Assembly: GCA_964016885.1 (NCBI GenBank) | Contig: OZ024742.1 | Span: 361,584,001 to 361,648,000, forward strand | DNA length: 64,000 nt | Direction: 5' to 3' | From: Eledone cirrhosa | Lineage: Eukaryota | Shown here: piece by piece, positions 3,607-64,000 of the stretch | Numbering within the stretch: the stretch's first letter is position 1 | Layout of the letters: the number at the start of each line of letters is the position of its first letter | Position numbers and translations under genes: made by a program | The notes under the pieces: model-generated | What the model was told of the DNA's origin: nothing | What the model saw: only the letters and a program-made list of their open reading frames with translations | The model's database searches: none

Positions 3607-4780
3607 ACTAGCAGTTTAGCCCGGCGTTACTCGGGTTTGTTCATTTGCTATGAAAAGTTACATACAGGTAAACGTAGCTTGAAAGCGCATAATCTTATCA
3701 ATTAAGTGCATAAAGCAGTTGAACCGGTTATTAATAGTTACGAACCAATTAGCATTTTGGACAATCAATGATGGCTTAATAATCTTCCAATAGCGAATTT
3801 AGTAGAACAAAGTTGCAAGATGGTGGCCCTGATGCCGCTGCGTGTCAGATCTGTCCGCTATGGGTGACCCAACCAGTTTTCCAGACGGCATAACTCAAAC
3901 ATCTATAGCACTTCATAGTAGACGATATTGCGTGTCATCCCTTGAGGAGTGTAAGCAAAAAGTCCATTCCTGCTCCATACGCGGAAACTGGCAACAAAGT
4001 TGGCCATGGGAGAAGCATGGCTCCCCCAAATGGATGACCGCCACCAACAATGTTTGCCCTTGTGACTTGTTAATGGACTTGGAAAAAAAAAATGGTCTCA
4101 CCGGGAATTGGGATCGCCGGAAATCGAACGGGATATCTGACGCCGAGGGGCAAAGGTTCATCCTTGGAATGAAAACATTCTCCCCTCTCCAGCACCCTGT
4201 TACAATGGTGGCCTCAATCAAGTGCAGCGTCAGTGACTTGACGACCATGCGAGTACCGTTGCACTGCTTTGGTGGACGCAAGTTCCTTATTAGCATAATG
4301 GGACAGCCAACCCTAAGCTTAAGAATAAGAGGTGGGAGCCCTGGGGAATTTAATAACTCAACCGGATAATTAACGATATCGTCGGGGTCTGACGCCAGGT
4401 CGATAGATTTGAAGACGTCTTCTTTACCGGGAATCTTCTCAATCAGCTGCTCGTTAATAAAATTAACCATGGTATTTTTCCGAGCAAGGATGGCTCTTTC
4501 GCTGAGCTAATCGAGGTTTTTAAAGTTAGATGAGACATTAGAAAAAACTGCTCCCAAAAGGTCAGAAGGGTTGCTCACAATGTTGCACAGGGAGTCGATT
4601 GCTATTCCGCCTTTGTCATCCGCAGGGACCTTGCCCTCACAAAGTGCTAAAATATTCTGACCAAATGCTGCAGACATGTCACCATGCAAATGAGCACGCA
4701 TATTTGTGCTCAAGTACAAACTCTTCACCTGGAGCCACAACATGGACGACTTAAGGCAGGCAGGCACGCACTTCTGCTCT
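3607..4780 (-). mobile_element. Helitron 3' part (PIF1-like helicase remnant and 3' terminus)
   Basis: PPLILKLRVGCPIMLIRNL...CNGTR, QFPVR, SINKSQGQTL, FSHGQL; minus-strand end CCCGAGTAACGCCGGG hairpin followed by CTAGT at 3607-3636. Confidence 0.85.
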
Positions 4781-4781
4781 T

Positions 4782-5686
4782 GTCAAGGTGAACGGCTACC
4801 TCTCGGAGCCGTTCGAAATCGCGCGGTCCATCCGACAAGGGTGCCCTCTCTCCTCCCTTCTGTATGTAATGACTAGAGCCACTGTTGCAGAAGTTGGAGT
4901 TGTTAATGCCGTCGTCGGGCGGAGGTGGCGAACACATAGCGTCCGTCATCTACTACCGCCTGACCGTCGTGCCTTGCCCAAGGGAAACGCTCTCCAAAAT
5001 GGAGCGCACACTCTTCCAATTCCTTTGGAAGAAGCGGGCTCCTATGGTGAGGAGATCCATCTGCTATCAACACCCTTCGAAAGGAGGGCTGAGATGCCGT
5101 GGCTGGTGATGCGTAAACACGCATTAAGGCTACGGCACCTCCAGGTATTCATCACCGGTCAACCGGTGTGGGCCCCGTTTGTGAGGCGAGCCTTTCCCAG
5201 ACTCGTCTCGCTCACCGAGCTGCAATCCTGGGTCAAGCAAAGACCGAGAAAATTGGGCGCCTGGCACACCGAGTGTGCCCAGGCGCTCACGGCTCTCTGG
5301 CAGGCGGACCCGGCTGTCAGTGGAGAATCCAACTCGTCATTCTATAGAGGGCTGGTGGTTAGCAGGTGCGGCAACACCCTCGGAGAAGCCCTAGGCATGG
5401 AGGAAAACGAACTGGCCAACCTGTTCGGTAGGACATTCAGCCAGGGACCTATGGATAACTTCCAGAGGTCCCTGGCCTGGCAGTGCCACCGAGGGGCTCT
5501 GCCTGTTCGAGAAAGGCTCTACAGACACGGGCGCCCTGGTAGAGACCCCTCGAAAAAGATCTGTCCCAGATGCGGGTGCGACGAGGAAACAATTGCACAC
5601 GCATTGTACAGTGCTCGGGCATTGCCTATCTGTGGGGCTATGTCGAACGACTGCTGTCACGGGTGGGACCGATCCGTTTGACCACC
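4782..5686 (+). mobile_element. L1/Tx1-like LINE RT and C-terminal fragment, internally deleted
   Basis: NGYLSEPFEIARSIRQGCPLSSLLYV, KGGL, CPRCGCDEETIAHAL; followed by a G17 run at 5687-5703. Confidence 0.75.
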
Positions 5687-5703: not shown

Positions 5704-6090
5704 TCAGCTTCGCTAAGGTGAAAATAATACTAACTAGAGACAATAGGGTTTGCCAGACTCAATTTAAGAATAAATCAAAAAAAGAAATACAAACCGGAAT
5801 TGTGGTAAGTACCAATCACCCAGACACCTTTGGTAATGCTGTTTCGCAAAATTAATTGTGAAGAGGAATACCAATTCTTGCTCATCAGTGGATGAAGAAT
5901 TATTATCATGGACATTTCTAAGTATATTAAAAAACTGAATAGTGTGCGTATATATAACGCACATGGTTTCTGAACTTAGCGTGTCTCACAAACTCACACC
6001 ACTAAAGATAGCAGCCAAGTTTGTATTTATTTTATTGATTTATTCTTAAATTGTCTATAGTTAGTATTCTTTTCACCTTAGCGAATCTGA
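5704..6090. repeat. Head-to-head inverted duplication enclosing a hammerhead (PLE pseudo-LTR-like)
   Basis: 5704-5794 is the reverse complement of 6019-6090, with a few mismatches and one ~19-bp indel. Confidence 0.75.
5816..5895 (-). ncRNA. Type I hammerhead ribozyme
   Basis: Minus strand: TCATCCA-CTGATGA-GCAAGA..TTTTGC-GAAA-CAGC..GGTG-TC-TGGGTGA; 7-bp stem I, intact core, GUC cleavage triplet. Confidence 0.8.
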
Positions 6091-6268: not shown

Positions 6269-6336
<68 letters not shown>

Positions 6337-6412
6337 CGAAGGAAATGTGGTAAGGAACCAGGTGGACCATAACGCACCAAAGTACTCAATACTTGAGGTA
6401 GTAGAGTGGGTA

Positions 6413-6523
6413 ATAGGAACCAGTAATACCCCGACAGCTGAGCTCAATCCGTTTCGACGGCTAATTCTGTCCAGAATTAGCCGTCGAAACGGCTTGAGCT
6501 CAGCTGTCGGGGTCTTACTGGTT

Positions 6524-6528
<5 letters not shown>
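6413..6528. repeat. 116-bp near-perfect palindrome built from the 3' half of a hammerhead
   Basis: 57-bp arms, 2 mismatches, 2-nt loop; each arm reads CCGTC-GAAA-CGGCT..AGCTG-TC-GGGGT. Confidence 0.85.
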
Positions 6529-22910: not shown

Positions 22911-23919
22911 ATCGCAACAATATATTGTTTAAAGAATTTTTTTTTCTGTTGTTAAAAACTGTAAATCTGTTAAAAAAAAAATGTATTTCGCAGCAATATT
23001 TTTTCTGTTAAAAACTGTAAATAAATATTCATGTAAAAATGAAGCATAGTTTTTTTGTGAAAAACTGTAAATAAATATTTATTTTGTTCAAAAATTAAAT
23101 CAAAAATCTAATTTTCTCTGTTAATATTTTAATAAATATTTATTCTAAAAATTCAATGTTTTTTCGTGTAAAAATGAAGCATGTAAGAAAATTAACATGT
23201 AAAAATCAAGCAGCAGCAGCTGATGACGTATCGTGACGTATCGTGTAGTGGGTGGAGCTAATAACTGAATGTCGATGATAATTTAGGACACTAAAACCAA
23301 GTATCGCCCCAACCCTAACCGTAAATATATTACATTTGTTTTAATCTTTAGTCACTTTACGGATATAAACGGCGGGAGTAACTTTGGTTGGGGTTCACCG
23401 GGTGAAATTAATTCTGCACCCCTCTCAGGCACGCGCTAGCTCGTATCTAAAAAAAAACTCGTATGTCGGTTCACTCGTATCTCAAGGTATCACTGTATTT
23501 AAAACATATTTGTTATGTTATTCTACTGTAAATTTATTTATATGCTCTGTTTATATTTTCATTCTGAAAGAATTGCAAACGATTTCTAATGTTATTTATA
23601 CAACTGTGAATAAAAGAGAAATTTGATAGTTTGTTATCAACTAAATACATTTGGAACAATTATTTACATCTTACAATTTGAAATGTTATTATATATTAAA
23701 TAAAGTACCAGTAATACACTGAATATTTGCCGGCCTTGTGCCAAAAGTAGAAACAATTATTATATATTAAATAACGTTACAAATGGGAGTGAAAATATAA
23801 ACACATATGATATATACAAAGAATATAAATAAATTTACAGTAGAATAACATAAATATGTTTTAAATATATACATAACACTACAAATGCTTAACTAACAGT
23901 ATAAATTGAAGGGGTGGAA

Positions 23920-24184
23920 AACGGAGCCAACACCAGAGCAAAAGACAGCAGCCAGGGGTACTGGGCAACCTCTCTAATGATTTTTAAGGCAAGCCAGCAC
24001 ACTGGCAGTGTTACCTCGTGTGATGGCGAGGCTGAGGTGCTGGAAGAAACAAGCGCCCTCGCCAGTTACCTCTATTAGGCGAGCCGCCAGTGAAGAGAGG
24101 AACCTCGCAGTCAGCGGCCCGACTCCCCACAGGCTGAAAAATTTACCCCTCGCTGCTGTCTTTTGCTCTGATGTTGGCTCCGTT
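23920..24184 (-). mobile_element. CRE-like retrotransposon 3' tip bracketed by 41-bp inverted repeats
   Basis: Minus strand FFQHLSLAITRGNTASV resembles LFQRVSLAVLRGNAFSI near 38550; arms 23920-23960 and 24144-24184 differ at 2 positions. Confidence 0.6.
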
Positions 24185-24934
24185 GTTCAACCGTTCCTTT
24201 GCATTTTCATAAATAAATTATGACAGTTTTTCGAAGCTAGAAATCAAATAGAGATATTTTTATACACATTGTATTATGTGTTTTTATTTTCATTCTGAAA
24301 GAACTGAACAATTTGTAATGTTAATTAAACACATGTTTAGCATACCTTTGTCTTCCTCGTCTTGCTTCATTGAAAAATTCTAGTTTCCTCTCTTAATTCA
24401 TTTCTTCTTTCTTCTGTTAAATTTCCTCTGAACTCTTTTTCCTTATATCATTAATATTATTGTTGTTTAAGTTGTTGCATTGAAATGGTTATCACTATTA
24501 TGTGCTGTATCAATATTGATAGCGTAATTTTCTGAAGTGACTCTCTTGTAAAATAAATGTCTTATTTGCTCCCATGGACGAGAAAGGAGGGTAAGAATAA
24601 ATAAAAAAAAGTTTCCAGAAGAAATAATAGTGGTCCGTTTGTTCAAACAATGAAACACAACTTGTTACGTTTTCACCGAAAATCAAATTCAGCGCCGTTC
24701 GTCTACCATTGCTGTATGTGGGTGTGTCTAAGTTTGTTTGGTGTGTACGCACGTGTCAAAGTCAATCATGTAATTATCTCCCCTTGGCAAACAAGCATCA
24801 TATGGCGGAAGAGGGTGTGTAACATCTGAAGATAGACGTTGCAAAATGTTTTGAGATACATAAATAGATAAGTAGGTAGATAGATAGATATATAATTGAT
24901 AGATATGTAGGTAGATAGATAGATATATAATTAT

Positions 24935-29260: not shown

Positions 29261-30585
29261 GAGATGTAGTTTGGTTTTGTGCCTCTGAAAATTACAACAG
29301 ATGCCCTCTTCTTAGTGAGACAACTACAAGAGAGGTTCTTAGAGAAAAATAAGCCACTATACTTAGCTTTTGATGACTTAAAGGAGGTCTTTGATAGTGT
29401 ACCACGATCTGTCATCTGGTGGTCTCTAAGGAAAATAGGTGTAGAGGAATGGCTTGTGAGGACAGTGCAAGCTAAGTACAGAGGTTCTGTCAGTAAAGTG
29501 AGAGAAGTAATGGAGTTTAATGAGGAATTCCAGATACAAGTAGAAGTGCATCAGGGCTCTGTCCTCAGCCCACTCTTGTTCATTATAATTCTCCAAGCCA
29601 TAACACGAGTTTAAGACTGGCTGCCCTTGTGAACTTCTCTATGCTGACGATCTGGTACTTATAGCAGATTCAATAGAGGAACTAGAGAAGAAATTCTGTC
29701 TATGGAAAAAGCAGTTGGAATCAAGAGGACTGAGAGTAAACCTAGCTAAGACAAAAGTGTTGATAAGTAGAGAAGAGGACAAAACTCTGATTCCATCAGG
29801 GAAATGGTCATGTTCAATATGTAGAAAAGGAGTTGGGATAAATTCTATAAAATGTACACAATGCAGATCCTGGGTACACAAGAGATGTAGTGGGATAGCA
29901 GGCAAACTAACAAGTAGGGAGAAATACGTATGCAGTAGTTGTACAGAACTTGACAGTAGAAGACGCAGTGATAGACACATTTACCACATGAAGGTGGGTT
30001 CTATAGAAGTGGGTGATAGCTTCCGCTACCTAGGTGATCTGATTAGAATGGGAGCGGGTGTTCCGAGACCATAATATCTAGAATAAGGACAGGTCGGAAG
30101 AAATTTAGGGAGCTGCTTCCTCTGTTGACAAAGAAGGATTTCTCCCTGCGTACGAAAGGATGGTTATATGATGACTGTGTGAGATGCGCGATGCTGCATG
30201 ATAGTGAGACTTGGGCAGCAACTGCAGAGGATATGCGATGGCTGGAGAGAAATGAACGACTAGGCATGGAGGACTTCAGGGAGAAACTGTTTAACTGGGA
30301 TAAGTTGAAGTGTGCAGGAGAGAAGACTGTGTTGGTATAGACATGTGATGCGCTTGGAGGATGACACCTAGGTAAAGAAGTGCCAAGAAATCCCAGTAGA
30401 AGGACAACACAGTAGAGGAAGACCACGAAAAATACGGGCGGAGCTGGTGTGAGCAGACCTCAAATCTCTAAAGCTCAATGAGGAGATGACGAAGGACCGT
30501 GACAAGTGGAGAGATACTGTGCTCAATAGGTTCGTCCCACCCTTGCAAGCAAGGAAAAGCAGACGTAAAGTGATGAAGTTGATGA
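29261..30585 (+). mobile_element. RTE LINE RT to 3' end, decayed
   Basis: TTDALFLVRQLQE, HQGSVLSPLLF, PHD-like CSIC..CTQC..HKRC..CSSC, LHDSETW. Confidence 0.85.
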
Positions 30586-31839
30586 CAAGACTTGTTGCAA
30601 TTTAAACATCAACTAGGTAGATATGTATGCATGTGTGTGCAGCTATCCATCTATTTGTGTGTGCTTGTGTTCCTTTTCACTTATGTGTGCATCTGTATAT
30701 GCTTAGTATTTAGATGCACATCACCTCCAATGTTTCAAATATTTTTTATCATACTTACATCGATTATACATCGAATTACAAATATAGTCGTCTTCTTTCT
30801 ATTTCTCTAAAGCAAAGCTTCACAACTAATATGAACGTATAGTCAGGGTCGACCATGTGCAAATGCTTCCTTATTTCTGCATAGAGAGTAATATAGATAA
30901 ACAAATTATATTATCTTCACCAACAAACGCTATATTGTCTCTCACTTTCAAGGATACGCTTTTGCAATAAAACAACAGGAAATAAAGACAAACTATCTGA
31001 TTCCCTAATATATAATATTATATTGGTATCTGCTTGGCAGCGAACTCCAACTGCTGAGCGTCGTCTGTTATGCTTCCAATTCATTGCTTTTCACCGGAAC
31101 AATCCACAACTACTCTTTCTATGTCTTAAAACGTTGCTGTAACTCTCAATGTTTACTCTCGGGGATGACCTTTCTAGGGATTGCATTCTTCACACTTTTC
31201 GCCACATCTTTCCACAGCTTCTTCACATCGGTCACAACTTCAATGTTCAATCTGCACAATTTCCACTTCTTTTCACATCTAGGTCTTTTGTGTACATCCC
31301 TATCTATTCTGTGACTCAGTTAGTCTTAGTTTCAAGTTCTTATATTGTAAAATAATCTTTCAACATGGGAGACAATATAGCACTTGTTGCTGAAGATAGA
31401 CTTTTATCATCTATATTATTCTCACTCTCCAGCTTCCAGGTAACATATCCATGCATAATATTTGTGTGTGTGTGTCGTAATTTGTCTATATTTGAGAAAA
31501 GGATAATGATAAAAAGATATATACAGGGAGGAGGAGAGTGACTTGGTGGTGGAACAATATGGTAGATGAGGCAGTTAAGGTTAAGAGACAGGCATGGAAA
31601 GAATGGAAGAACAGGGCACATTACATAGAGACCAGGAGGGAAGCTAGGCGACAAGTATACTTAGCTAGAAGGGAGGTAGAGGATAGGAAATTCAAGCATG
31701 TTTTGCAACACGAGGAACAGAAACAGGAGGTGTTCCAGATTACGAGGCAGTGTGTCAGAGAGAATTGTGATGTCATAGGAGAGAATTGTTTCCAGAATAA
31801 TAAAGGTGAGCTTGCACTCACAAGTGCCCTATCCATATA

Positions 31840-33320
31840 GGAGGTAGCAGAGCGGGGGCCAAACAACATAGGCCAGTCTCCCTGACGTCACATATCAGTA
31901 AGGTCATGGAGCGAATCGTCAGAAAGAAACTGATCACTTTCCTCGAGGAAAATGACTGCCTGACTAACACGCAGCATGGCTTTCACCCAGGAAGAAGCTG
32001 CCTTACACAGCTGCTACATCATTAAGACTGGGTACTGAAACAACTGCTTGACAGCTCACATGTGGACATGATATATCTTGACTTTGCGAAGGCCTTTGAC
32101 AAAGTCGACCACGGAATGATATGTCACAAACTACACGAACTCACCATAACTAGAAAAGTAGGTGAGTGGCTGCACGACTTCTTAAAGGAGAGAAGCCAGA
32201 CAGTCGCAGCAAACGGGGGCCCTCTCAAAGGAAATATCAATAACAAGTGGGGTTCCCCAAGGCTCCTGGTTCCTGGGACCACTACTGCTTTTGGTGGCCC
32301 TCTCAGACATACCCTCTGTAGTACATACAACAACATCCCTCACTAGCTATGCTGATGACACTAAGGTAGCACAGGCAATCAAAAACCCGGCTGATGCTGC
32401 CCTTTTACAACAAGGGCTGTATGCCATATGCAAATGGGCGGAAGACAACAACATGCAGTTTAATGCTGGCAAATTCCAAGCGCTACGCAATTCCTGCAAA
32501 CACAAATACAGTACAACACAGTTACACCGGACTAGGAGGGACCAATATCCCTGGGTAAAAATCGATATGAGACCTGGGTATAGACATGAGCGATGATGCA
32601 TCTTTTTCCTCTCACATCATGAAAGTGGCGACAATGTGCAGACGACTCGCTGGCTGGATCTTGAAGACTTTCCGGACAAGAGACCGAGACACCATGTTGA
32701 CACTATGGAGGACATTTGTCCTAAGCCGCCTGGACTATTGCTCCCAGTTGTGGTCACCGGTCACCCCATAGTGTCAAACTAACCACGGAGCTTGAGGCAA
32801 TCCAGCGAAGCTACACCAAAAGGATTGCGACTATGAAGGAGATAAGCTACTGGGCGAGGCTAAAAGAACTGAACCTCTACTCCTTGGAACGAAGACGGGA
32901 GAGATCCGCAGTGATCTACATGTGGAAAATCCTGGAGGGACTAGCACTTTGGCATTGGGAGCTGGACCAACCGCCGAACAGGACGTCATTGTGTAGTGCC
33001 AAAGATCCCGTCTTCCATATCTAGAATAAGGAGCAGATATTGCAAAAGTCTGGGGTTCAAGGACCCTCAACTCTTCAACAAGCTGCCAAGGGATCTGAGA
33101 GATCTGCATGGTGTGGATGTCTTCAAGAAACATCTCGACACCTTGCTATCCAGGATCCCAGATGAGCCCACAGCAAGGCACGAGGGAAACCTAAGGGCAG
33201 CAGCAATGAACTCCCCGTTGCACCAGTGGCCAACCAATACAGCTGGAGATTAAATGTATAGCAACAAGGGCGGTGCCCCAGCATGGCCTCAGCCGGATGG
33301 CTGGAACAGGTAAAAGAGTA
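31840..33320 (+). mobile_element. CR1-clade LINE RT to 3' end, decayed
   Basis: DMIYLDFAKAFDKVDH, YADDTK, LSRLDYCSQLWSP, RLKELNLYSLERRR. Confidence 0.8.
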
Positions 33321-33354
33321 TATATACATATTTATATACATATATATATATATA

Positions 33355-33730
33355 TACAAAGTGTTAAAACGATCAAATTTTAGTTTAGAACATTTATTTG
33401 CTGACAATTGCTTCTTCCAGAAACATGTTACTAAAATCCTATCATTCAGAACATTTAAGATACATAATTGTTATTAGTGTCAAAGGCATCATGTGGAGAA
33501 TCAGGAGTTAAAAAGATGTTCTGCTTGAAAGAACACAATTACAGGCAGCACTGGTTGGAAGTGTAATAGGTATAAGGAAAAAGCACAGGCAAAAAAATCA
33601 AAGGCATAAAAGTTATAAGCAATGTTTCAACATTCCTTATGCTCCGATGATTCCAGACTTCCCTCTGGAAGAAACAATTGTCAGCAAATAAATGTTCTAA
33701 AGTAAAATTTGATCATTTTAACACTTTGTA
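33355..33730. repeat. Head-to-head inverted duplication (67-bp arms) starting inside a hammerhead
   Basis: 33355-33421 is the reverse complement of 33664-33730 with 3 mismatches. Confidence 0.85.
33640..33686 (+). ncRNA. Minimal type I hammerhead, CCGATGA core variant
   Basis: TGCT-CCGATGA-TTCCAGActtcccTCTGGAA-GAAA-CAATTG-TC-AGCA, followed by AATAAA. Confidence 0.7.
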
Positions 33731-34340
33731 TCTCGGTTCTGTAAAACACTTGAAAACTTGCATTGAGCCTTTTGTCATACCGGTAACCTTCCAGATCATT
33801 ATATGGAAGGTCATCTTCAGAGGCTAAGAGAAAGAAAATACAGCGATCTGAAGAAAGTGAAGAAGTTCGGCATGCCCGTCTAGCTGCTAACAGAGCCCAA
33901 ACAGCTTTAGCAAGAGCACACAGTTTGAATGAAAGGGAACAAAGGACTGCTGCTACTCGAGAACAACAAATTAAGGAACAACAGCAAATAAGACGAAATG
34001 CTAATCAAGCACATCGTTTTACTGCCTGAGCAGGAGAACAAGCCACAAGTAGAATAAACTGGCTGATGGGGGCTTTTTCTGATGGGGTTATGTTAGCCAT
34101 CCGCGGCCGAAACAAAGAGGAGCCCTTGCATTCTCGTCCATGAGGTGAATTTGTCTTTATGTATGTATATATATATATATATGTATGCATGTGTATGTAT
34201 GTATATGCATGTATGTGTATGTATGTGTGTGTATGTATGTATATGCATGTATGTGTATGTATGTATGTATGTATATGCATGTATGTGTATGTATATATGT
34301 ATATGTATATATGTATATATGTATGTATATGTATATATTA

Positions 34341-51139: not shown

Positions 51140-52735
51140 GATAGAGGGACCAGCTATTGACAAAGATGAATATAGGGTTAGGGCATCAGAAGTAGCTACT
51201 AAACTGGTTGCACGCATCGTCAATCAGGTTATATATATGGCTGAGTCATACCCAAAGACTGGTGCAGCAGTATCCTTATAAATTGCGACAAAGGTAGAAA
51301 GGGATGCTCTGGAAATGAGCAATTATAGAGGCATCAAACTGATGGATCAGGTTATGAAAGTGGCAGAAAGAATACTATTGCAACTAATTAGAGAAAGGGC
51401 CAAACTAAATGAGATGCAGTTTGGTTTTATGTCTGGGAAAAGTACAACAGATGCCCTCTTCTTAGTGATACAACTACAAGAGAGGTTCTTAGAGAAAAAT
51501 AAGCCACTATACTTAGATTTTGATGACTTAGAGGAGGTCTTTGATAGTGTACCACGATCTGTCATCTGGTGGTATCTAAGGAAAATAGGTGTAGAGGAAT
51601 GGCTTGTGAGGACAGTGCAAGCTAAGTACATAGGTTCTGTCAGTAAAGTGAGAGAAGTAATGGAGTTTAATGAGGAATTCCAGATACAAGTAGGAGTGCA
51701 TCAGGGCTCTGTCTTCAGCCCGCTCTTGTTCATTATAATTATCCAAGCCATAACACGAGTTTAAGACTGGCTGCCCATGGGAACTTCTCTATGCTGACGA
51801 TCTGGTACTTATAGCAGATTCAGTAGAGGAACTAGAGAAGAAATTCTGTCTATGGAAAAAGCAGTTGGAATCAAGAGGACTGAGAGTGAACCTAGCTAAG
51901 ACAAAAGTGTTGATAAGTAGAGAAGAGGACAAAACTCTGATTCCATCAGAGAAATGGTCATGTTCAATATGTAGAAAAGGAGTTGGGATAAATTCTATAA
52001 AATGTACACAATGCAGATCCTGGGTACACAAGAGATGTAGTGGGATAGCAGGCAAACTAACAAGTAGGGAGAAATACGTATGCAGTAGTTGTACAGAACT
52101 TGACAGTAGAAGACGCAGTGATAGACACATTTACCACATGAAGGTGGGTTCTATAGAAGTGGGTGATAGCTTCCGCTACCTAGGTGATCTGATTAGAATG
52201 GGAGCGGGTGTTCCGAGACCATAGTATCTAGAATAAGGACGGGTCGGAAGAAATTTAGGGAGCTTCTTCCTCTGTTGACAAAGAAGGATTTCTCCCTGCG
52301 TACGAAAGGACGGTTATATGATGACTGTGTGAGATGCGCGATGCTGCATGGTAGTGAGACTTGGGCAGCAACTGCAGAGGATATGCGACGGCTGGAGAGA
52401 AATGAACGACTAGGCATGGAGGACTTCAGGGAGAAACTGTTTAACTGGGATAAGTTGTAGCGTGCGGAAGAGAAGACTGTGTTGGTATAGACATGTGATG
52501 CGCATGGAGGATGACACCTAGGTAAAGAAATGCCAAGAAATCCCAGTAGAAGGACAACGCAGTAGAGGAAGACCACGAAAAATATGGGCGGAGCTGGTGT
52601 GAGCAGACCTCAAATCTCTAAAGCTCAATGAGGAGATGACGAAGGACCGTGACAAGTGGAGAGATACTGTGCTCAATAGGTTCGTCCCACCCTTGCAAGC
52701 AAGGAAAAGCAGACGTAAAGTGATGAAGTTGATGA
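51140..52735 (+). mobile_element. RTE LINE RT to 3' end, decayed
   Basis: NYRGIKLMDQ, GVHQGSV, PHD-like finger; paralog of 29261-30585. Confidence 0.85.
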
Positions 52736-53974
52736 CAAGACTTGTTGCAATTTAAACATCAACTACGTAGATATGTATGCATGTGTGTGCAGCTATCCAT
52801 CTATTTGTGTGTGCTTGTGTTCCTTTTCACTTATGTGTGCATCTGTATATGCTTAGTATTTAGATGCACATCATCTCCAATGTTTCAAATATTTTTTATC
52901 ATACTTAAATCGATTATACATCGAATTACAAATATAGTCGTCTTCTTTCTGTTTCTCTAAAGCAAAGATTCACAACTAATATGAACGTATAGTCAGGGTC
53001 GACCATGTGCAAATGTTTCCTTATTTCTGCATAGAGAGTAATATAGATAAACAAATTATATTATCTTCACCAACAAACGCTATATTGTCTCTCACTTTTA
53101 AGGATACGCTTTTGCAATAAAACAACAGGTAAGACAAACTATCTGATTCCCTAATATATAATATTATATTGGTATCTGCTTGGCAGCGAACTCCAACTGC
53201 TGAGCGTCGTCTGTTATGCTTCCGATTCATTGCTTTTCACCGGAACAATCCACAACTACTCTTTCTATGTCTTAAAACGTTGCTGTAACTCCCAATGTTT
53301 ACTCTCGGGGATGACCTTTCTAGGGATTGCATTCTTCACTCTTTTCGCCACATCTTTCCACAGCTTCTTCACATCGGTCACAACTTCAATGTTCAATCTG
53401 CACAATTTCCACTTCTTTCCACATCTAGGTCTTTTGTGTACATCCCTATCTATTCTGTGACTCAGTTAGTCTTAGTTTCAAGTTCTTATATTGTAAAATA
53501 ATATCTTTCAACATGGGAGACAATATAGCACTTGTTGCTGAAGATAGACTTTTATCATCTATATTATTCTCACTCTTCAGCTTCCAGGTAACACATCTAT
53601 GCATAATATTTGTGCGCGTAATTTGTCTATATTTGAGAAAAGGATAATGATAAAAAGATATATACAGGGAGGAGGAGAGTGACTTGGTGGTGGAACAATA
53701 TGGTAGATGAGGCAGTTAAGGTTAAGAGACAGGCATGGAAAGAATGGAAGAACAGGGCACATTACATAGAGACCAGGAGGGAAGCTAGTCGACAAGTATA
53801 ATTAGCTAGAAGGGAGGCAGAGGATAGGAAATTCAAGCATGTTTTGCAACACGAGGAACAGAAACAGGAGGTGTTCCAGATTACGAGGCAGTGTGTCAGA
53901 GAGAATTGTTATGTCATTGGAGAGAAGTGTTTCCAGAATGATAATGGTGAGCTTGCACTCACAAGTGCCCTATC

Positions 53975-55470
53975 CATGTAGGAGGTAGCAGAGTGGAAGC
54001 CAAACAACATAGGCCAGTCACCCTGACGTCACATATCAGTAAGGTCATGGAGCGAATCGTCAGAAAGAAACTGATCACTTTCCTCGAGGAAAATGACTGC
54101 CTGACTAACACGCAGCATGGCTTTCACCCAGGAAAAAGCTGCCTTACACAGCTGCTACATCATTACGACTGGGTACTGAAACAACTGCTTGACAGCTCAC
54201 ATGTGGACATGATATATCTTGACTTTGCGAAGGCCTTTGACAAAGTCGACCACGGAATGATATGTCACAAACTACACGGACTCACCATAACTGGAAAAGT
54301 AGGTGAGTGGCTGCACGACTTCTTAAAGGAGAGAAGCCAGACAGTCGCAGCAAACGGGGGCCCTCTCAAAGGAAATATCAATAACAAGTGCGGTTCCCCA
54401 AGGCACAGTCCTGGGACCACTACTGTTTTTGGTGGCTCTCTCAGACATACCCTCTGTAGTACATACAACAACATCCCTCACTAGCTATGATGATGACACT
54501 AAGGTAGCACAGGCAATCAAAAACCCGGCTGACGCTGCCCTTTACAACAAGGGCTGTATGCCATATACAAATGGGCGGAAGAAAACAACATGCAGTTTAA
54601 TGCTGGCAAATTCCAAGCCCTACAATACAAACCTCCAAACAAACTTGCAAACACAAATATAGTACAACACAGTTACACCGGACCAGGAGGGACCGATATC
54701 CCTGGGTAAAAATCGATATGAGACCTGGGTATAGACATGAGCGATGATGCATCTTTTTCCTCGCACATCATGAAAGTGGCGACAATGTGCAGGCGACTCG
54801 CTGGCTGGATCTTGAAGACTTTCCGGACAAGAGACCGAGACACCATGTTGACACTATGGAGGACATTTGTCCTAAGCCGCCTGGACTACTGCTCCCAGTT
54901 GTGGTCACCCCATAGTGTCAAACTAACCACGGAGATTGAGGCAATCCAGCGAAGCTACACTAAGAGAATTGCGACTGTGAAGGAGATAAGCTACTGGGCG
55001 AGGCTAAAAGAACTGAACCTCTACTCCTTGGAACGAAGACGGGAGAGATCCGCAGTGATCTACATGTGGTAAATCCTGGAGGGACTAGCACCAAACTTTG
55101 GCATTGGGAGCTGGACCAACCGCCGAACAGGACGTCATTGTGTGGTGCCAAAGATCCCGTCTTCCATATCTAGAATAAGGAGCAAATATTGCAAAAGTCT
55201 GGGGTTCAAGGACCCTCAACTCTTCAACAAGCTGCCAAGGGATCTGAGAGATCTGCATGGTGTGGATGTCTTCAAGAAACATCTCGACACTTTGCTATCC
55301 AGGATCCCAGATGAGCCCACAGAAAGGCACGAGGGAAACCTAAGGGCAGCAGCAATGAACTCCCTGTTGCACCAGTGGCCAACCAATACAGGCTGGGGAT
55401 AAAATGTGTAGCAACAAGGGCGGTGCCCCAGCATGGCCTCAGCCGAATGGCTGGAACAGGTAAAAGAGTA
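53975..55470 (+). mobile_element. CR1-clade LINE RT to 3' end, decayed
   Basis: HRPVTLTSHISKVMERI, QHGF..GKSCLTQL, LDFAKAFDKV; paralog of 31840-33320. Confidence 0.8.
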
Positions 55471-57890: not shown

Positions 57891-58974
57891 TGAAGTAGTA
57901 TAAGTGAGGACTTTGTTGGGTAGAAATAGCAGCCAAATTTCCTTCAAATTCCACCTTTCCCCGAATTACAGAAATGAGTAAGTAAACGCTTCATTCGATC
58001 ATAAACCAATGATAAATTTATTTTCTTATTTTATTTATGGTTTTTTAAAATAGTCTTTACATGTTGTTTGAATTTCAGAGGTTCAGATTGAGCAAAGAAA
58101 AAAAAAGAAAGAAAGAAAGAAAAGGATAAATAAAAAAAAATCTAAATGTATTTTTTGCGTCAAGCCCTTTTCACTGACAACATACCCAATGATTCATCTA
58201 TGAGTAAAGTATTATATATGCTGACTGTAATAGGGAGCAGTATTCAAAAAATCACCACTGGAAAAAACTAATATTTTTATCTAGATGATTTATTTGACCA
58301 AACGGCAATAAATATTCTGCTTTACTTTCGTTAAAATTCAGCAATTATATTTGAATGGTCAAATATTTTGTAATGTGTGCCAAATATATTGTAACTTTCA
58401 TAAAATACCCGGGTATCACCGGGTAGCTCAGCTAAAATAAAAATGAAATTGTTATTGTTGTTATTGCAATTTATATATTTATACTACTACTGCTGAGTTG
58501 TTACAACGTCTGATAATATTGGAGTTTTGGAGAGGAGATAGCTTGGATTTTATTTACCTATTGACACCCACGGACACACACACATATACACGCATACGCA
58601 TACACGGACACACAGACACACACACATACATGCAGCCACACACACAGACACACACACACATTCACAGACACACATACACACAGACAGGCAGACACACACA
58701 CACACAGACACACATATGAGCTTAACGGAACCAAAAAAGACACATATACGACACTCGCATTCACTGGATGCAAATTCCGTAACAACTGCTTGTGATGTAT
58801 ATATATATATATATGGGAGGAGGTTATAGTTCACTTGAAGCATTGTGTAATGAGGTATAAACGTTAGAATATGTGTAATAAGGCCAAGACAATGCAGATA
58901 TGGACATAGAAAAAGAATGCAATAGTGAGAGATATTGATGAGGATTCGTCTTTCACCTTGAATTTATTTAAATG

Positions 58975-59012
58975 TCCTTAATTTTCGAGATAATATCTCT
59001 TCTTCGGAGGGA
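58975..59012 (-). ncRNA. Atypical minimal hammerhead candidate in the PLE 3' UTR
   Basis: CCT-CCGAAGA-aGAGATattATCTC-GAAA-AT-TA-AGG, then AATAAA; short stems and one extra A. Confidence 0.4.
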
Positions 59013-59385
59013 AGTAAAAGTCTCAGACCAGCGTCTAAATTTCCAATGAAGCCATGCTGACCGGAAATAGTATAGAGTTCTAACTTTAATATCAAAGAAT
59101 TAAAATTAGGTGGGTAAAGAGTAGTCTCCCTTTAAGAGGGGTTTGTTTATGTTTTTGTTGTGTTTTTTAAATTTTATATGCGTGTCTGTATATGTGTGTG
59201 GGAGAAAGCATGAAGGTGTAGGTATGTGTGTGTGTGAGTGTGGGAAGATAGGTCTAATCGTAAAAGTGGGGGGTAGGTGTTATCTGGTGTTAGAACTGGT
59301 TTTGTGTGTGTATGTGTGAGAGAGAATAAGTGGAGGTGTGTGCGTGCGTGTGTGTGGGGTGTGTAAAGTGGGGCTAGAGGCCCTA

Positions 59386-61326
59386 TCAGGTTATAAATTG
59401 GGTGTTGAGCTCTAGTCTATTATTGATTGGTGGATGTGTTCTATCTATAATGAGTGCTTCCTTGATTCTAAGATTACCGAGGTTTCTTTCTTTAGTTTCT
59501 ATCCTAACTGTTATGTTTTTATCAGTGTTTTTGCATTTAACTAGGTGTTTCTTAAATGAGGAAGCGTTAGTATTGAGGTGTTCTTTTATTCTTATGTGGA
59601 GTGGTCTGGTGGTGCTACCTACGTAGAAGTTGTTGCATTTGTCACACTCTAGTCTGTAAACTACGTAAGCCTGGTGGCATAGGTCTGTGTCGTTGATGGG
59701 GCAGTTGGCTAGTCTGCAGCAGTTGTCATGTCTGGTGGAGTGTCTCTTAGCTAGCCGTCCACGCAAAGAAGGACCCGAATGGGCCAGTTGAATATCCAGA
59801 CCTTCTCGTCTGATGGCTCTGCGGATGGCTGTTGTTGTTTCTTCACTGAAGTGTGGGAGCTTCAGGAAGCAAGTGTTAGTGCCTCGGGTGTGGTGTCCTC
59901 TGTTCTTTCTGGCACGGTTTGTGGTGGATGTCGTGTATCCGTTCAGTTTGAGTACTTCCAGGAAATGTGTGGTGTGTGTGTCTCGGTCTCTGGCGTCGGT
60001 GCATTTGTTCTTGATACGTGCCAGTTCGTTCTTTATGTATCCGAACTTGGCACCGAGTGGGAGGGCCGATCTGAAATGTACGAACAGGTCCCTGCTGGCG
60101 GATTTTTTATAGAAGCAGGTGTGGATGTTGCCTTCCTCTGTTACCCTGAGTTGGAAGTCCAGCAGGGATAGGGATCCGCGGTCATCGGGGTGTTCTATGC
60201 TGAACTTTATACTGGCGTCCATGCTGGAGAATGTTGTGTATATTTTCTCTGCCTCTTCACGGGATGATGTAAGGATGAGTATGTCATCTACATATCGGGT
60301 GAAGAAGGCATGGGAATGGCAGGTGTTGAGGGCTCGGCATTCTAGCTGGTTCATGTAAGTGATGGCCAGCAGGCCAGAGAGGCTGGATCCCATGGGTAAT
60401 CCTGTTGTCTGTCTGTATGTGTGGTGGTGGAAGGTGAAGTACGTGTTGTCTACCGTGAAGGACAAAAGTTGGTGTATGTCCGTCGGGTGGAGGCCGTAGC
60501 AGTGGATGTTCTCTGCGACCACGCAGTCCGTCAATAAATCGACAGCTGGGTGAGCGGGGACTGTAGTGTAGAGGGAGACAACGTCGAGGCTAAAAGCGTA
60601 TTTATTAAGTTTAAGTTGTTCTGGCTGGAGTTGGTGTAATCTACGTATAACTTCGTCGGAGCTACTGACATGTCCGGGGAAGGTGGAGAGTAGAGGCTTG
60701 AGGACCTGGGAGAGAAGCCAGGAAATTTTGTATAGGGGTCCTTCTATGCTAGAGACGATGGGTCTTATATGCGTCTTAGTGCTATTCTTGTGGGTCTTGA
60801 TGAGGTGGTAGAAAGTGGGCAGTCTGCTATTTCTAGTGGTGTAGTTGAGTTTAATTTTATTCGGGAGTTGTCTTCTCCTACAGATATCGAACCAAATGGA
60901 GTTGGTCTGTTTTTCGATTTGGGCTGCGGTCATGTCCGGGATCACTGTGTACAGTTCACTGTCGCTTAGGTGTTCGAAGGCTAGGTTATTGTATGTGGCT
61001 TGAGAGATGACGCAGAACTCTTTACCTTTGTCGGATGGTAAGTAAATAAGTTCCTTATTCCGTAGGTTCTTCAGGGCGAGTTGTTGTGTCCTGGAGAGGT
61101 TAGGGGCCACCTTCTTCTGTTTCCGTAAGATGTTAAATACGGAATGTTTTAGTCTCGAGAGTTTATCTTCCAGCTCGCGGTTGGCGGGCGGTGGATAGAG
61201 TGGGCGATCTAGTTGGTATATCGGGAATCTGTATACATACATATATGTATACAGACGTACAGTAGCATGCACATATATATATATATATACATATATATAT
61301 ACATATGCATACAGGTACACATACAT
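59386..61326 (-). CDS. Penelope-like element RT + GIY-YIG endonuclease (Neptune/Nematis-type Cys-rich linker); 5'-truncated, first ~33 aa come from the fused repeat
   Basis: Uninterrupted frame with PSDKG, LIKTHK..IRPIVS, SLDVVSLYT, GLPMGSSLS, RYVDD, LSLLD, CRLANC..C, VVYRLECDKCNNFYVGST.R.L..R..EH, LRIKEALII. Confidence 0.92.
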   Translation of the reverse strand: MYVYLYAYVYIYVYIYIYVHATVRLYTYMYVYRFPIYQLDRPLYPPPANRELEDKLSRLKHSVFNILRKQKKVAPNLSRTQQLALKNLRNKELIYLPSDKGKEFCVISQATYNNLAFEHLSDSELYTVIPDMTAAQIEKQTNSIWFDICRRRQLPNKIKLNYTTRNSRLPTFYHLIKTHKNSTKTHIRPIVSSIEGPLYKISWLLSQVLKPLLSTFPGHVSSSDEVIRRLHQLQPEQLKLNKYAFSLDVVSLYTTVPAHPAVDLLTDCVVAENIHCYGLHPTDIHQLLSFTVDNTYFTFHHHTYRQTTGLPMGSSLSGLLAITYMNQLECRALNTCHSHAFFTRYVDDILILTSSREEAEKIYTTFSSMDASIKFSIEHPDDRGSLSLLDFQLRVTEEGNIHTCFYKKSASRDLFVHFRSALPLGAKFGYIKNELARIKNKCTDARDRDTHTTHFLEVLKLNGYTTSTTNRARKNRGHHTRGTNTCFLKLPHFSEETTTAIRRAIRREGLDIQLAHSGPSLRGRLAKRHSTRHDNCCRLANCPINDTDLCHQAYVVYRLECDKCNNFYVGSTTRPLHIRIKEHLNTNASSFKKHLVKCKNTDKNITVRIETKERNLGNLRIKEALIIDRTHPPINNRLELNTQFIT

Positions 61327-61451
61327 ATATGCACGTATCAGTTTAGCGGCGCTAACGTCGCTTTATTCGTTTGTAAACAAACTGAACAGCCTGAATTTAT
61401 GCCATACGGTGTTAAGGCAACCACGTCACCTTTTTGTTCAACACTGACACA
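61231..61451 (-). repeat. Inverted partial copy of the 466-bp unit, fused to the PLE ORF
   Basis: Reverse complement of about 61731-61950 with one clear substitution. Confidence 0.9.
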
Positions 61452-61683
61452 TACTGTACGTCTGTATACATATATGTATGTACGTATACATGCATACTTA
61501 CATTTAAGTAAGTGCCATACTAAGAGTGAGAAATGAAATTTCGTTTTCATTTTGTTTCAATTTATCGTTTTCGGTATGCCTGACCGATTTAACTCACTCA
61601 ATATGCAAATTAGGCTGCTCAGCCGTTAATTTTCATAAGGAAAGTATATACTTTCGAACGTTCAACTATCTGGCAGATGGGTA

Positions 61684-61728
61684 AACGGTGCTGATGATAG
61701 CTAACAAGCTTGAAACTAGTACATCGTT
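61684..61728 (+). ncRNA. Minimal type I hammerhead ribozyme, copy 1
   Basis: AACGGTG-CTGATGA-tAGCTaacaAGCTt-GAAA-CTAG-TA-CATCGTT; predicted cleavage after GUA (A61721). Confidence 0.9.
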
Positions 61729-62149
61729 CCTGTGTCAGTGTTGAACAAAAAGGTGACGTGGTTGCCTTAACACCGTATGGCATAAATTCAGGCTGTTCAG
61801 TTTGTTTACAAACGAACAAAGCGACGTTAGCGCCGCTAAACTGATACGTGCATATATGTATGTGTACCTGTATGCATATGTATATATATATGTATATATA
61901 TATATATATGTGCATGCTACTGTACGTCTGTATACATATATGTATGTACGTATACATGCATACTTACATTTAAGTAAGTGCCATACTAAGAGTGAGAAAT
62001 GAAATTTCGTTTTCATTTTGTTTCAATTTATTGTTTTCGGTATGCCTGACCGATTTAACTCACTCAATATGCAAATTAGGCTGCTCAGCCGTTAATTTTC
62101 ATAAGGAAAGTATATACTTTCGAACGTTCAACTATCTGGCAGATGGGTA

Positions 62150-62194
62150 AACGGTGCTGATGATAGCTAACAAGCTTGAAACTAGTACATCGTT
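62150..62194 (+). ncRNA. Minimal type I hammerhead ribozyme, copy 2
   Basis: Identical to copy 1, 466 nt downstream. Confidence 0.9.
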
Positions 62195-62428
62195 CCTGTG
62201 TCAGTGTTGAACAAAAAGGTGACGTGGTTGCCTTAACACCGTATGGCATAAATTCAGGCTGTTCAGTTTGTTTACAAACGAACAAAGCGACGTTAGCGCC
62301 GCTAAACTGATACGTGCATATATGTATGTGTACCTGTATGCATATGTATATATATATGTATATATATATATATGTGCATGCTACTGTACGTCTGTATACA
62401 TATATGTATGTACGTATACATGCATACT

Positions 62429-62472
<44 letters not shown>

Positions 62473-62899
62473 AGGAGACAGATAAAATAGACATTATATT
62501 GTCTCTTCAACCTTTAGATGGTCAATGGTTTCGAGAATTTAACTAAAATAAAAAATTAAATTAAATATAATTAAATAAGTAGGGGTTCTCTTTTTCAAAG
62601 AGATATAGAAGGAACATTAAAAAAGATTAATACGACTCCTTATGTGTATCTCACAGTCCAGGATTGACCCTCAGTCCTCGATTCAACCCCCAGACCACAA
62701 TTGAACACCGAAACCAGGATCTCACCATCTCTGGTACTTCCCACTAAGCTACCGAGACTGATACAAAGATTTACTGAAAATTAATATTTATAAACCTACT
62801 TTCAAAATACAATTAATTACTTTAAATTAAATTAAAATTAAATGAAATAAATCGACATTGGGGTTCTAAACTTTAATATATATATATATATATATATAG

Positions 62900-64000
62900 G
62901 TAGAATCAGTAAGTACATATTAGATCGTATTATCCCTCAAGTTAAGGCTAAGGTAAATATTAAATTATGGGGTAATACTCAACAGGCAATAAGTTGGTTC
63001 AATAACATTAGTGACAAAAACAAATCTTCTTTTATTCAATTCGATATAGATGAATACTATTCCTCTATTTCACCTGAAACTCTGCATAAGGCCCTCTCAT
63101 TCGCTAAGGTTAACTCGGACCTCACAAACGAGGATATTAATATTATACTTGAAGCTAGACGCACAGTAGTCCATTTTGAAAATAGTTATTGGGTCCGCAG
63201 GGATAGACCATCGGAATTTGACATTACGATGGGTTCTAATGATTCGGCGGAAGTTACGGATTTGGTTTGAATCTATATAGCTCACAGACTCCAGACGAAT
63301 TTATTGACCTCCACGGCGGAATCTACCGTGATGATGCACTCCTATTAGTCAAAAATATGAACAAACAAAACCTAGAAAGGCGACGTAAAAACATTAGGAA
63401 ACTTTTCTTAGAACTAGGACTTAGTATTACCTTCGAACACAATCTTAAAGTGGTCAATTTCTTGGTTGTCACCTTCAACCTTAATAACGGTAATATAAAG
63501 CCATTTCACAAACTTAATGAAAATCTCAAATACGTTAATGTAAGATCGAACCATCCACATTCCATTATTAAATCTATCCCTAAAAATATATCCATAAGGA
63601 TCTCCCGACTATCGTCTAATTTGCAGACCTTCAACGAGCATGCTGAGTATTATAACGACGCACTTAGAAAAGCTGGTTACTGCGAGAAAATAGAATATCT
63701 AGAAGATAACCACATAGGTACTATGAATAAATCACATCTAAGTCGAACTAGTATTGCACCACACAGACACATTAATAGGCATAATAATAGGTGCAAACCT
63801 ACAAATAGAGTTAGACGTAGAGAGTACATATGGTATAACCCCGTGTACAATATTTCTATTAGCACTAAGATTATCTCACAATTCTATACACTGATCAATA
63901 AACACTTTACAATTTCACATAAATACTATAAAATCTTAAACTCGCGCACCATTAGACTCTCATACTCCACTGCACCTAACATAGAACAACTAATTAAAAA
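62900..64000 (+). pseudogene. Second, unrelated Penelope-like RT (YRDD type), decayed, runs off the window
   Basis: Manual translation: FIQFDIDEYYSSI, FDITMGSNDSAEVTDLV*, GGIYRDDAL, VVNFL, SNHP, WYNP, LSYST. Confidence 0.75.

Follow-up and report, generated by a model that had tools for sequence, protein, structure and literature searches.

Inversion junctions beside hammerhead ribozyme motifs in Penelope-type insertions of Eledone cirrhosa are probably not set by the ribozyme

The 64,000-nucleotide stretch of Eledone cirrhosa DNA analysed here (the window) carries four insertions built of two head-to-head arms, and their inversion junctions lie near hammerhead ribozyme motifs or, at one locus, half of one. 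We give a probability of roughly 55% to the reading that these are two-armed Penelope-type insertions, in which two 5′-truncated DNA copies, primed from both sides of one cut, were joined. The point at which the sequence flips is likely not determined by the cut site or the stem of the motif. A preliminary description of this DNA had proposed that the ribozyme, through its self-cleaved 5′ end or its stable stem II, determines where reverse transcription stops or snaps back; that mechanism is unsupported in the two families sampled in public reads, and the lead that is left is a modest one, a pile-up of junctions just ahead of the ribozyme.

Results

Hammerhead motifs and inverted matches in the window

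Repeats are abundant in this animal DNA, which has 40% GC and many TA-type microsatellites. Two motif scans placed type I hammerhead motifs at 33644 (locus A), at 5888 on the minus strand (locus C), at 61691 and 62157 (locus D) and at 59007 on the minus strand (element F, beside locus D). There were two hits in the first scan and four in the relaxed one, the latter against a background of 0.05 hits per shuffled window, and all cut sites given below are motif-based predictions. Loci A, C and D and element F pass the motif and pairing scan for a type I minimal hammerhead, while locus B has half a motif only. Rfam gave no hammerhead among the matches listed for the window (150 of 151).

Comparison of the window with itself yielded 13 nearby inverted matches, loci A, B, C and D among them, and together with the arm alignments it bears out the four head-to-head insertions that had been described. 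At 4/4 loci an inverted, 5′-truncated copy lies directly adjacent, and many more copies exist in families A and D. The arms themselves were found, although the bounds first given for them were short: the long arm of A runs to 33784 and that of B to about 6336. Inverted repeats at 1833/2609, 14302/15101, 23496/23867, 23908/24196, 30884/31423 and 53034/53571 were left uncounted, there being no hammerhead motif in them in either scan. Three of these, the short elements 1833–2609, 23496–23867 and 23908–24196, have terminal inverted repeats and TA ends and resemble MITE-type DNA transposons.

The outer ends had been said to lie mostly in simple repeats, which is correct for 5/8 (left end of A, both ends of B, left end of C, right end of D) and not for the others, nested elements being the other surroundings of the ends; to this extent a bias towards microsatellite or AT-rich targets is seen at loci A–D. 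The one-sided extensions measure 53 letters in A, 77 in B and about 16–24 in D, the known PLE tail being 30–40 bp. None of the four loci has an ORF for a PLE reverse transcriptase (RT) with GIY-YIG, so only non-autonomous or truncated members are possible there.

Structure of the four loci

At locus A, the short inverted arm (33354–33421, minus strand) is a copy of 33664–33731 (65/68 identical) whose outer end is a (TA)n run detected by TRF at 33319–33356. The long arm (33422–33784, plus strand), delimited by family joints at 33622 and by unrelated host sequence from 33785, comprises a spacer (33427–33621), a pLTR-like part from 33622 and the one-sided extension of 53 letters (33732–33784); contig depth changes in steps near 33730 and 33780. 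Its type I minimal hammerhead motif (33640–33686, plus strand), found by the motif scans, has the core CCGATGA at 33644–33650, a 7-bp stem II (33651–33657/33664–33670) and a predicted cut after 33682, and folding predicts a hairpin directly ahead of stem I (33615–33640, plus strand). The breakpoint, 33664, is where the 3′ strand of stem II begins, 19 letters ahead of the predicted cut. At the junction, six letters (33421–33426, minus strand) are the reverse complement of 33622–33627, which by sequence match and family joints is the family's common short-arm start.

A sister subfamily of A, seen as loose ends in public reads, has an identical core and a different stem II. Core position 4 is C instead of U in two unrelated families (33644–33650 and 59007–59001); in A this is a family trait, common to the sister subfamily. 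Within 33623–33632, position 33629 is G in 80% of the contig depth of family A, which would give the hairpin before stem I a closing UUCG-type loop. To the right of A lies another multi-copy repeat (33785–34080), whose own upstream sequence appears at 33785 in 968 reads; neither the left part of this repeat nor a 14-letter piece of the host sequence expected to the left of A was found in the window, so that the left flank of A was replaced or lost. A 4-kb stretch with RT remains occurs twice at 96% identity (29269–33318 and 51419–55468); the TA run at the left end of A closes the first copy, and a short TA run with a different flank the second.

The arms of locus B (6413–6469/6472–6528, 55/57 identical) form an almost perfect palindrome around a centre of 2 letters. 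The long arm of B (6336–6471, minus strand) includes the one-sided extension of 77 letters (6336–6412), ending at (TA)30 according to self-comparison and TRF; its short arm (6472–6528, plus strand, by self-comparison) ends at (TA)27 and carries the 3′ half of a hammerhead (6486–6508), with GAAA at 6486–6489, a 5-bp stem III and a cut triplet ending at 6508. This half motif occurs four times in 64 kb on both strands together, and chance is therefore an unlikely source of it. Neither motif scan found a catalytic core at B, and with the core missing and the upstream sequence gone, stem II is here a prediction only. The long arm can form a 3-bp stem II with the palindrome centre as its 5′ foot, and the earlier placing of the breakpoint in stem II is plausible on this modelled pairing. 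An exact 23-letter piece of B had 0 matches in the metagenome collection. The 9-letter motif CTGGTTCCT (sense strand) stands just ahead of the short end and again near the long end (6336–6430), which would be in line with a signal common to two copy-start sites.

The long arm of locus C (5704–6018, minus strand; motif scan, self-comparison and folding) carries a hammerhead motif and ends at a G17 run; on the minus strand stem I spans 5895–5816, the core lies at 5888 and the predicted cut follows 5823. The short inverted arm (6019–6090, plus strand, by self-comparison) matches 5794–5704 with a 19-letter gap, and it begins at the 29th letter after the predicted cut, 28 letters being skipped. Near the G17 run, a 308-residue frame without a Pfam match occupies 4755–5681 and resembles the C-terminal end of an L1/Tx1-type element.

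In locus D, the short inverted arm (61234–61451, minus strand) is identical to 61731–61948 at 217/218 positions and begins at the 10th letter after the predicted cut (after 61721, with 9 letters skipped before 61731). The long arm (61452–62436, plus strand), recognised by self-comparison, motif scan and TRF, ends at (AT)19 and consists of two units in tandem, about 466 letters each. Over 400 letters these units are 99.75% identical, and each has a whole hammerhead (cores 61691 and 62157); copying must thus have passed through hammerheads. Folding predicts a long rod that extends stem I of the hammerhead (61660–61746, plus strand). The breakpoint positions that had been reported hold at 33664 in the 3′ strand of stem II, at 61731 nine letters past the cut and at 5794 twenty-eight letters past it; for B they depend on the predicted stem.

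The outer end of the short arm of D abuts a PLE ORF. This belongs to element F (58815–61233, minus strand), a 5′-truncated PLE identified by Pfam and the motif scan, whose 3′ end lies at a TA run and whose open frame has RT (RVT_1, 6.7e-16) and C-terminal GIY-YIG (9.9e-05) domains. It carries its own degenerate hammerhead motif (core 59007); a search with its protein returned one related locus among 82 candidates, 1418 letters long, which was left out of the analysis. Element F and both arms of D (58815–62436) lie between two TA runs, and the short arm of D joins the truncated 5′ end of F over a 6–7 letter match. The two may be one chimeric insertion, in which case F would be the enzyme donor for the retrozyme-like family D; alternatively, D was inserted later at the end of F. 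To the right of D (62470–64000, plus strand) there is a second, broken PLE reverse transcriptase with a YRDD motif and an internal TA run; the roughly 400 letters before it may include a degenerate hammerhead on the minus strand, together with a short palindrome at 62471–62517.

Junctions of families A and D in public reads

Public reads of families A and D stood in for a genome-wide plot of junction positions; these samples are small, their listings partial and the RAD library biased. Reads of family A came from three contig sets, all of a single sample, and from one RAD library belonging to a second study. The 15 joints listed of 17 comprise 11 strand switches and four same-strand skips. In ten of the 11 listed switches the short arm starts at 33621–33645 (eight at 33621–33625, one at 33631 and one at 33645), that is, 38–62 letters before the cut; the eleventh joins 33632 to 33740. 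Ends in stem II or at +1 to +29 were seen in 0/11 of these listed joints. The mode (33621–33625) lies inside the 5′ strand of the predicted hairpin 33615–33640, and in the common form of the family both arms carry a whole hammerhead. The inverted start of the long arm was seen as loose ends before 33622 in 16, 21 and 24 contigs of three runs, counts that come from one sample and are not additive, and a second variant had loose ends at 33623 in 12 contigs of one run. The main joint was covered by 58 raw reads from five starts in the second study, and the best contig across it has 93 letters on its shorter side.

The preliminary description had reckoned with junctions that are not spread uniformly, and the sharp mode of family A agrees with this; but the mode precedes the core by 22 letters and the predicted cut by 61, which speaks against the cut or stem II as its cause. 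The stem II breakpoint of the window copy is an outlier in its own family. Its long arm begins at the family's common place and keeps six letters of the common junction, and it would most simply be the common junction with a 37-letter loss between two TC pairs; it could instead be a rare fresh junction, if the six letters are the RNA's own start. The common junction is present in two sequence variants, yet the arms in the window differ at only 3/68 positions. We infer that a master copy passed on the fixed junction or else that it is made anew from an RNA whose 5′ end is fixed.

Sharp RAD read ends at 33705–33706, 33972, 61540–61542 and 61784–61785 were rejected as element boundaries: all stand on AATT sites with unrelated flanks and partly with adapter letters, and were treated as library cut-and-ligation products of a probable enzyme pair. 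One such rejected end falls 24 letters past the cut of A.

Family D is very abundant (126,492 reads from one library). Its 15 joints listed of 140, all from the RAD library, are 13 strand switches and two skips; for the count, one switch starting with AATT was dropped and three of 12 rows with letters between the parts were added. Nine rows were left out: two with AATT, two not head-to-head, three at the stretch edge, one from a contig and one of unstated kind. The last (61729 to 61706, three reads) would, if head-to-head, have its ends in loop II and at +8. Joints 61536–61788 and 61536–61628 were discarded as AATT library products.

The 15 breakpoints counted from listed rows lie at −86, −86, −80, −72, −63, −55, −51, −49, −47, −43, −43, +5, +12, +19 and +28. 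Between core and cut there were 0/15 (3.5 expected if uniform over 61632–61765, P 0.02), and at +1 to +4 likewise 0/15; at +1 to +29 there were 4/15 vs 3.2 expected. Ahead of stem I we counted 11/15 vs 5.8 expected (P 0.007), six of these 11 in the 5′ strand of the predicted rod, an excess to be read in the light of RAD cut sites and a size window that favour upstream breakpoints. Subfamily differences inside the hammerhead can shift the alignment ends, and PCR or ligation chimeras are possible. In the alignments the partner ends fall at +70 to +114; the library cut sites determine this range, but it shows that arms of family D often start far from the ribozyme. The ends counted here are those of longer arms, whereas the preliminary description had scored shorter arms.

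Clustering around the ribozyme

How far the four window breakpoints cluster was judged against a null in which short-arm lengths of at least 30 letters are drawn from a uniform or an exponential law. For the span implied by the preliminary description, which runs from where stem II begins to +29, multiplying over the four loci gives 0.0007–0.003, and 0.004–0.012 when B, whose limits are assumed, is omitted. With the ribozyme body fixed beforehand, from stem I to stem I, 2/4 loci fall inside (P 0.15–0.37). Clustering exceeds chance only when the span is drawn round the four points, and the span from stem II to +29 is fitted to the data and merges two mechanisms: the four breakpoints need an uncut template for A and B and a cut one for C and D. 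Since the cut lies 49, 20, 119 and 227 letters from the outer end of the short arm in A, B, C and D, respectively, short arms start near the hammerhead anyway.

Discussion

Origin of the inverted arms

In the account that we prefer, each end of the target would prime one DNA copy, each copy would stop on reaching the template's 5′ end, or before it, with the enzyme mostly reading through the hammerhead, and the two copies would then be end-joined head-to-head. The ribozyme would be a neighbour of the breakpoints and not their cause; the breakpoints probably look linked to it mainly because the hammerhead is only 20 to about 250 letters from the start of the copy. The data show the head-to-head layout, unequal outer ends, whole hammerheads in most arms of the families and a fixed junction in family A vs spread junctions in family D. 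Some observations count against priming from two sides: the arms of B start within 2 letters of each other, as independent copies rarely would; the A junction is fixed at both ends, contrary to what random truncation would give; and the four loci are unlikely under the simple nulls when the span from stem II to +29 is used. The readings discussed below and the preferred one are not all mutually exclusive.

That a self-cleaved 5′ end or stem II sets the stop or the snap-back now appears improbable. The window breakpoints themselves speak for it, at −19 (in stem II), +10, +29 and the centre of B, as do the 3-bp stem II at that centre, where the fit of two spacer letters has a 1 in 16 chance, and the 4/15 counted breakpoints of D at +5 to +28. 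Both families speak against it, with 0/11 listed joints of A in stem II or just past the cut and, in D, 0/15 counted from core to cut, none at +1 to +4 and a count at +1 to +29 that equals expectation. The junction of A, moreover, joins stem II to a point 240 letters upstream and not to the partner strand. Of the four loci, B alone is still compatible with such a stop, and there the product differs from that of a snap-back on the predicted stem II, which would leave the loop single; the loop is duplicated. In passages of an in vitro study (PMC11167929), uncut RNA was the main substrate and no reads began or ended at the cut.

A rule across families by which the template RNA starts, or the enzyme is released, just ahead of the folded ribozyme domain, leaving one whole hammerhead per arm, is possible though doubtful. 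In its favour are the mode of A at −61, in the hairpin beside stem I, the 11/15 counted breakpoints of D at −43 to −86 (5.8 expected, P 0.007) and the place of B at the predicted edge of core and stem II; but the excess in D is open to library bias, the mode of A may be one inherited event, and the breakpoints of C and of the window copy of D are beyond the cut. In addition, an enzyme that travels 3′ to 5′ would be expected to stall at the 3′ foot of a helix and not in its 5′ strand, which counts against this rule.

Alternatively, a single DNA copy could fold back and prime its own second arm, the first letters of the A RNA, complementary to 33622–33627, remaking the junction each time. We consider this unlikely. 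The palindrome of B with its 2-letter centre is the best fit among the loci, the 6-letter match at the A junction is in keeping with it, and so is the same A junction in two variants while the window arms differ at only 3/68; self-priming has also been proposed for such palindromes (PMC3846280, in a passage on them). Against this stand the junctions of C and D, where the one side open to checking has no pairing, the A joints from 33622 to 33448, 33483 and 33505, which have no 6-letter match upstream in the window copy, and the contig depth steps near both outer ends of A, a weak measure that suggests two set start sites. Later deletions at the centres of unstable DNA palindromes may have moved some breakpoints, the explanation to which we give least weight: the A junction as the common one with a 37-letter loss flanked by TC, the 19-letter gap in the short arm of C and single-contig A joints that keep one end and shift the other would all suit it, but the copy of D is very young (217/218 identical) with a blunt junction, and the same shifts could arise during end-joining.

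Relation to known elements

The layout is that of the known inverted-pLTR insertion of PLEs; families A and D speak against the ribozyme as the cause of its junctions. According to passages on PLE insertion units (PMC8557442, PMC3846280, PMC8969392), these consist of a pLTR and an adjacent inverted 5′-truncated copy, with a one-sided tail and a bias towards microsatellites. Like the EN+ units described there, our loci are head-to-head with unequal outer ends, microsatellite targets and palindromes at some junctions, and a PLE ORF with RT and GIY-YIG (element F) lies beside locus D; unlike them, A, B and C are without an ORF and the extensions have 53, 77 and about 16–24 letters, not 30–40. Those passages give no map of junctions relative to the hammerhead, and a search by title and the start of the abstract, covering mostly open-access papers, found no published one.

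Minimal PLE hammerheads, as described in part of PMC4209133, cleave poorly in vitro and occur in pairs on opposite strands 100–700 bp apart. The motifs in the window share with them the short stem I, longer stem II, stem III of 1–3 bp and palindromic loop, in D and F an unpaired base preceding stem II, and the opposite-strand pairs; they differ in that A and F have C at core position 4, that B is without a core and that the motifs here are predicted. In the sections consulted of the Poseidon_Ac study (PMC11167929), both strands of the target are cut and extended by the PLE protein, its copying begins at two sites a little downstream of the hammerhead, and insertion is no less efficient when the hammerhead is dead. 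Our loci resemble Poseidon_Ac in having two copy-end sites shortly downstream of the hammerhead; inversion junctions are not addressed in those sections. Family D is like the animal non-LTR retrozymes in the parts of 10.64898/2026.07.22.740005 and PMC7229834 concerned with them, with tandem type I hammerhead units and very high copy number, and it has the tandem structure by which these are recognised (at least two units with a whole type I hammerhead each); unlike them, the window copy of D has an inverted second arm.

Significance

The origin of PLE inverted pseudo-LTRs and the role of their hammerheads are described as open questions in passages of PMC8557442 and PMC3846280, and these questions would have become one if junction and cut were truly connected. 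A tentative and rather doubtful extension of our results is that inverted arms, in Penelope families generally, are run-off copies of RNAs that start just ahead of the hammerhead, so that every arm would come with one complete ribozyme, the A junction remaking itself at each insertion through six complementary letters. If this were true, the hammerhead would show where the template begins instead of cutting it, and the defined length of inverted pLTRs would be accounted for. The family data themselves argue against a link between junction and cut and point to a spot just ahead of the ribozyme, in a genome with very many copies.
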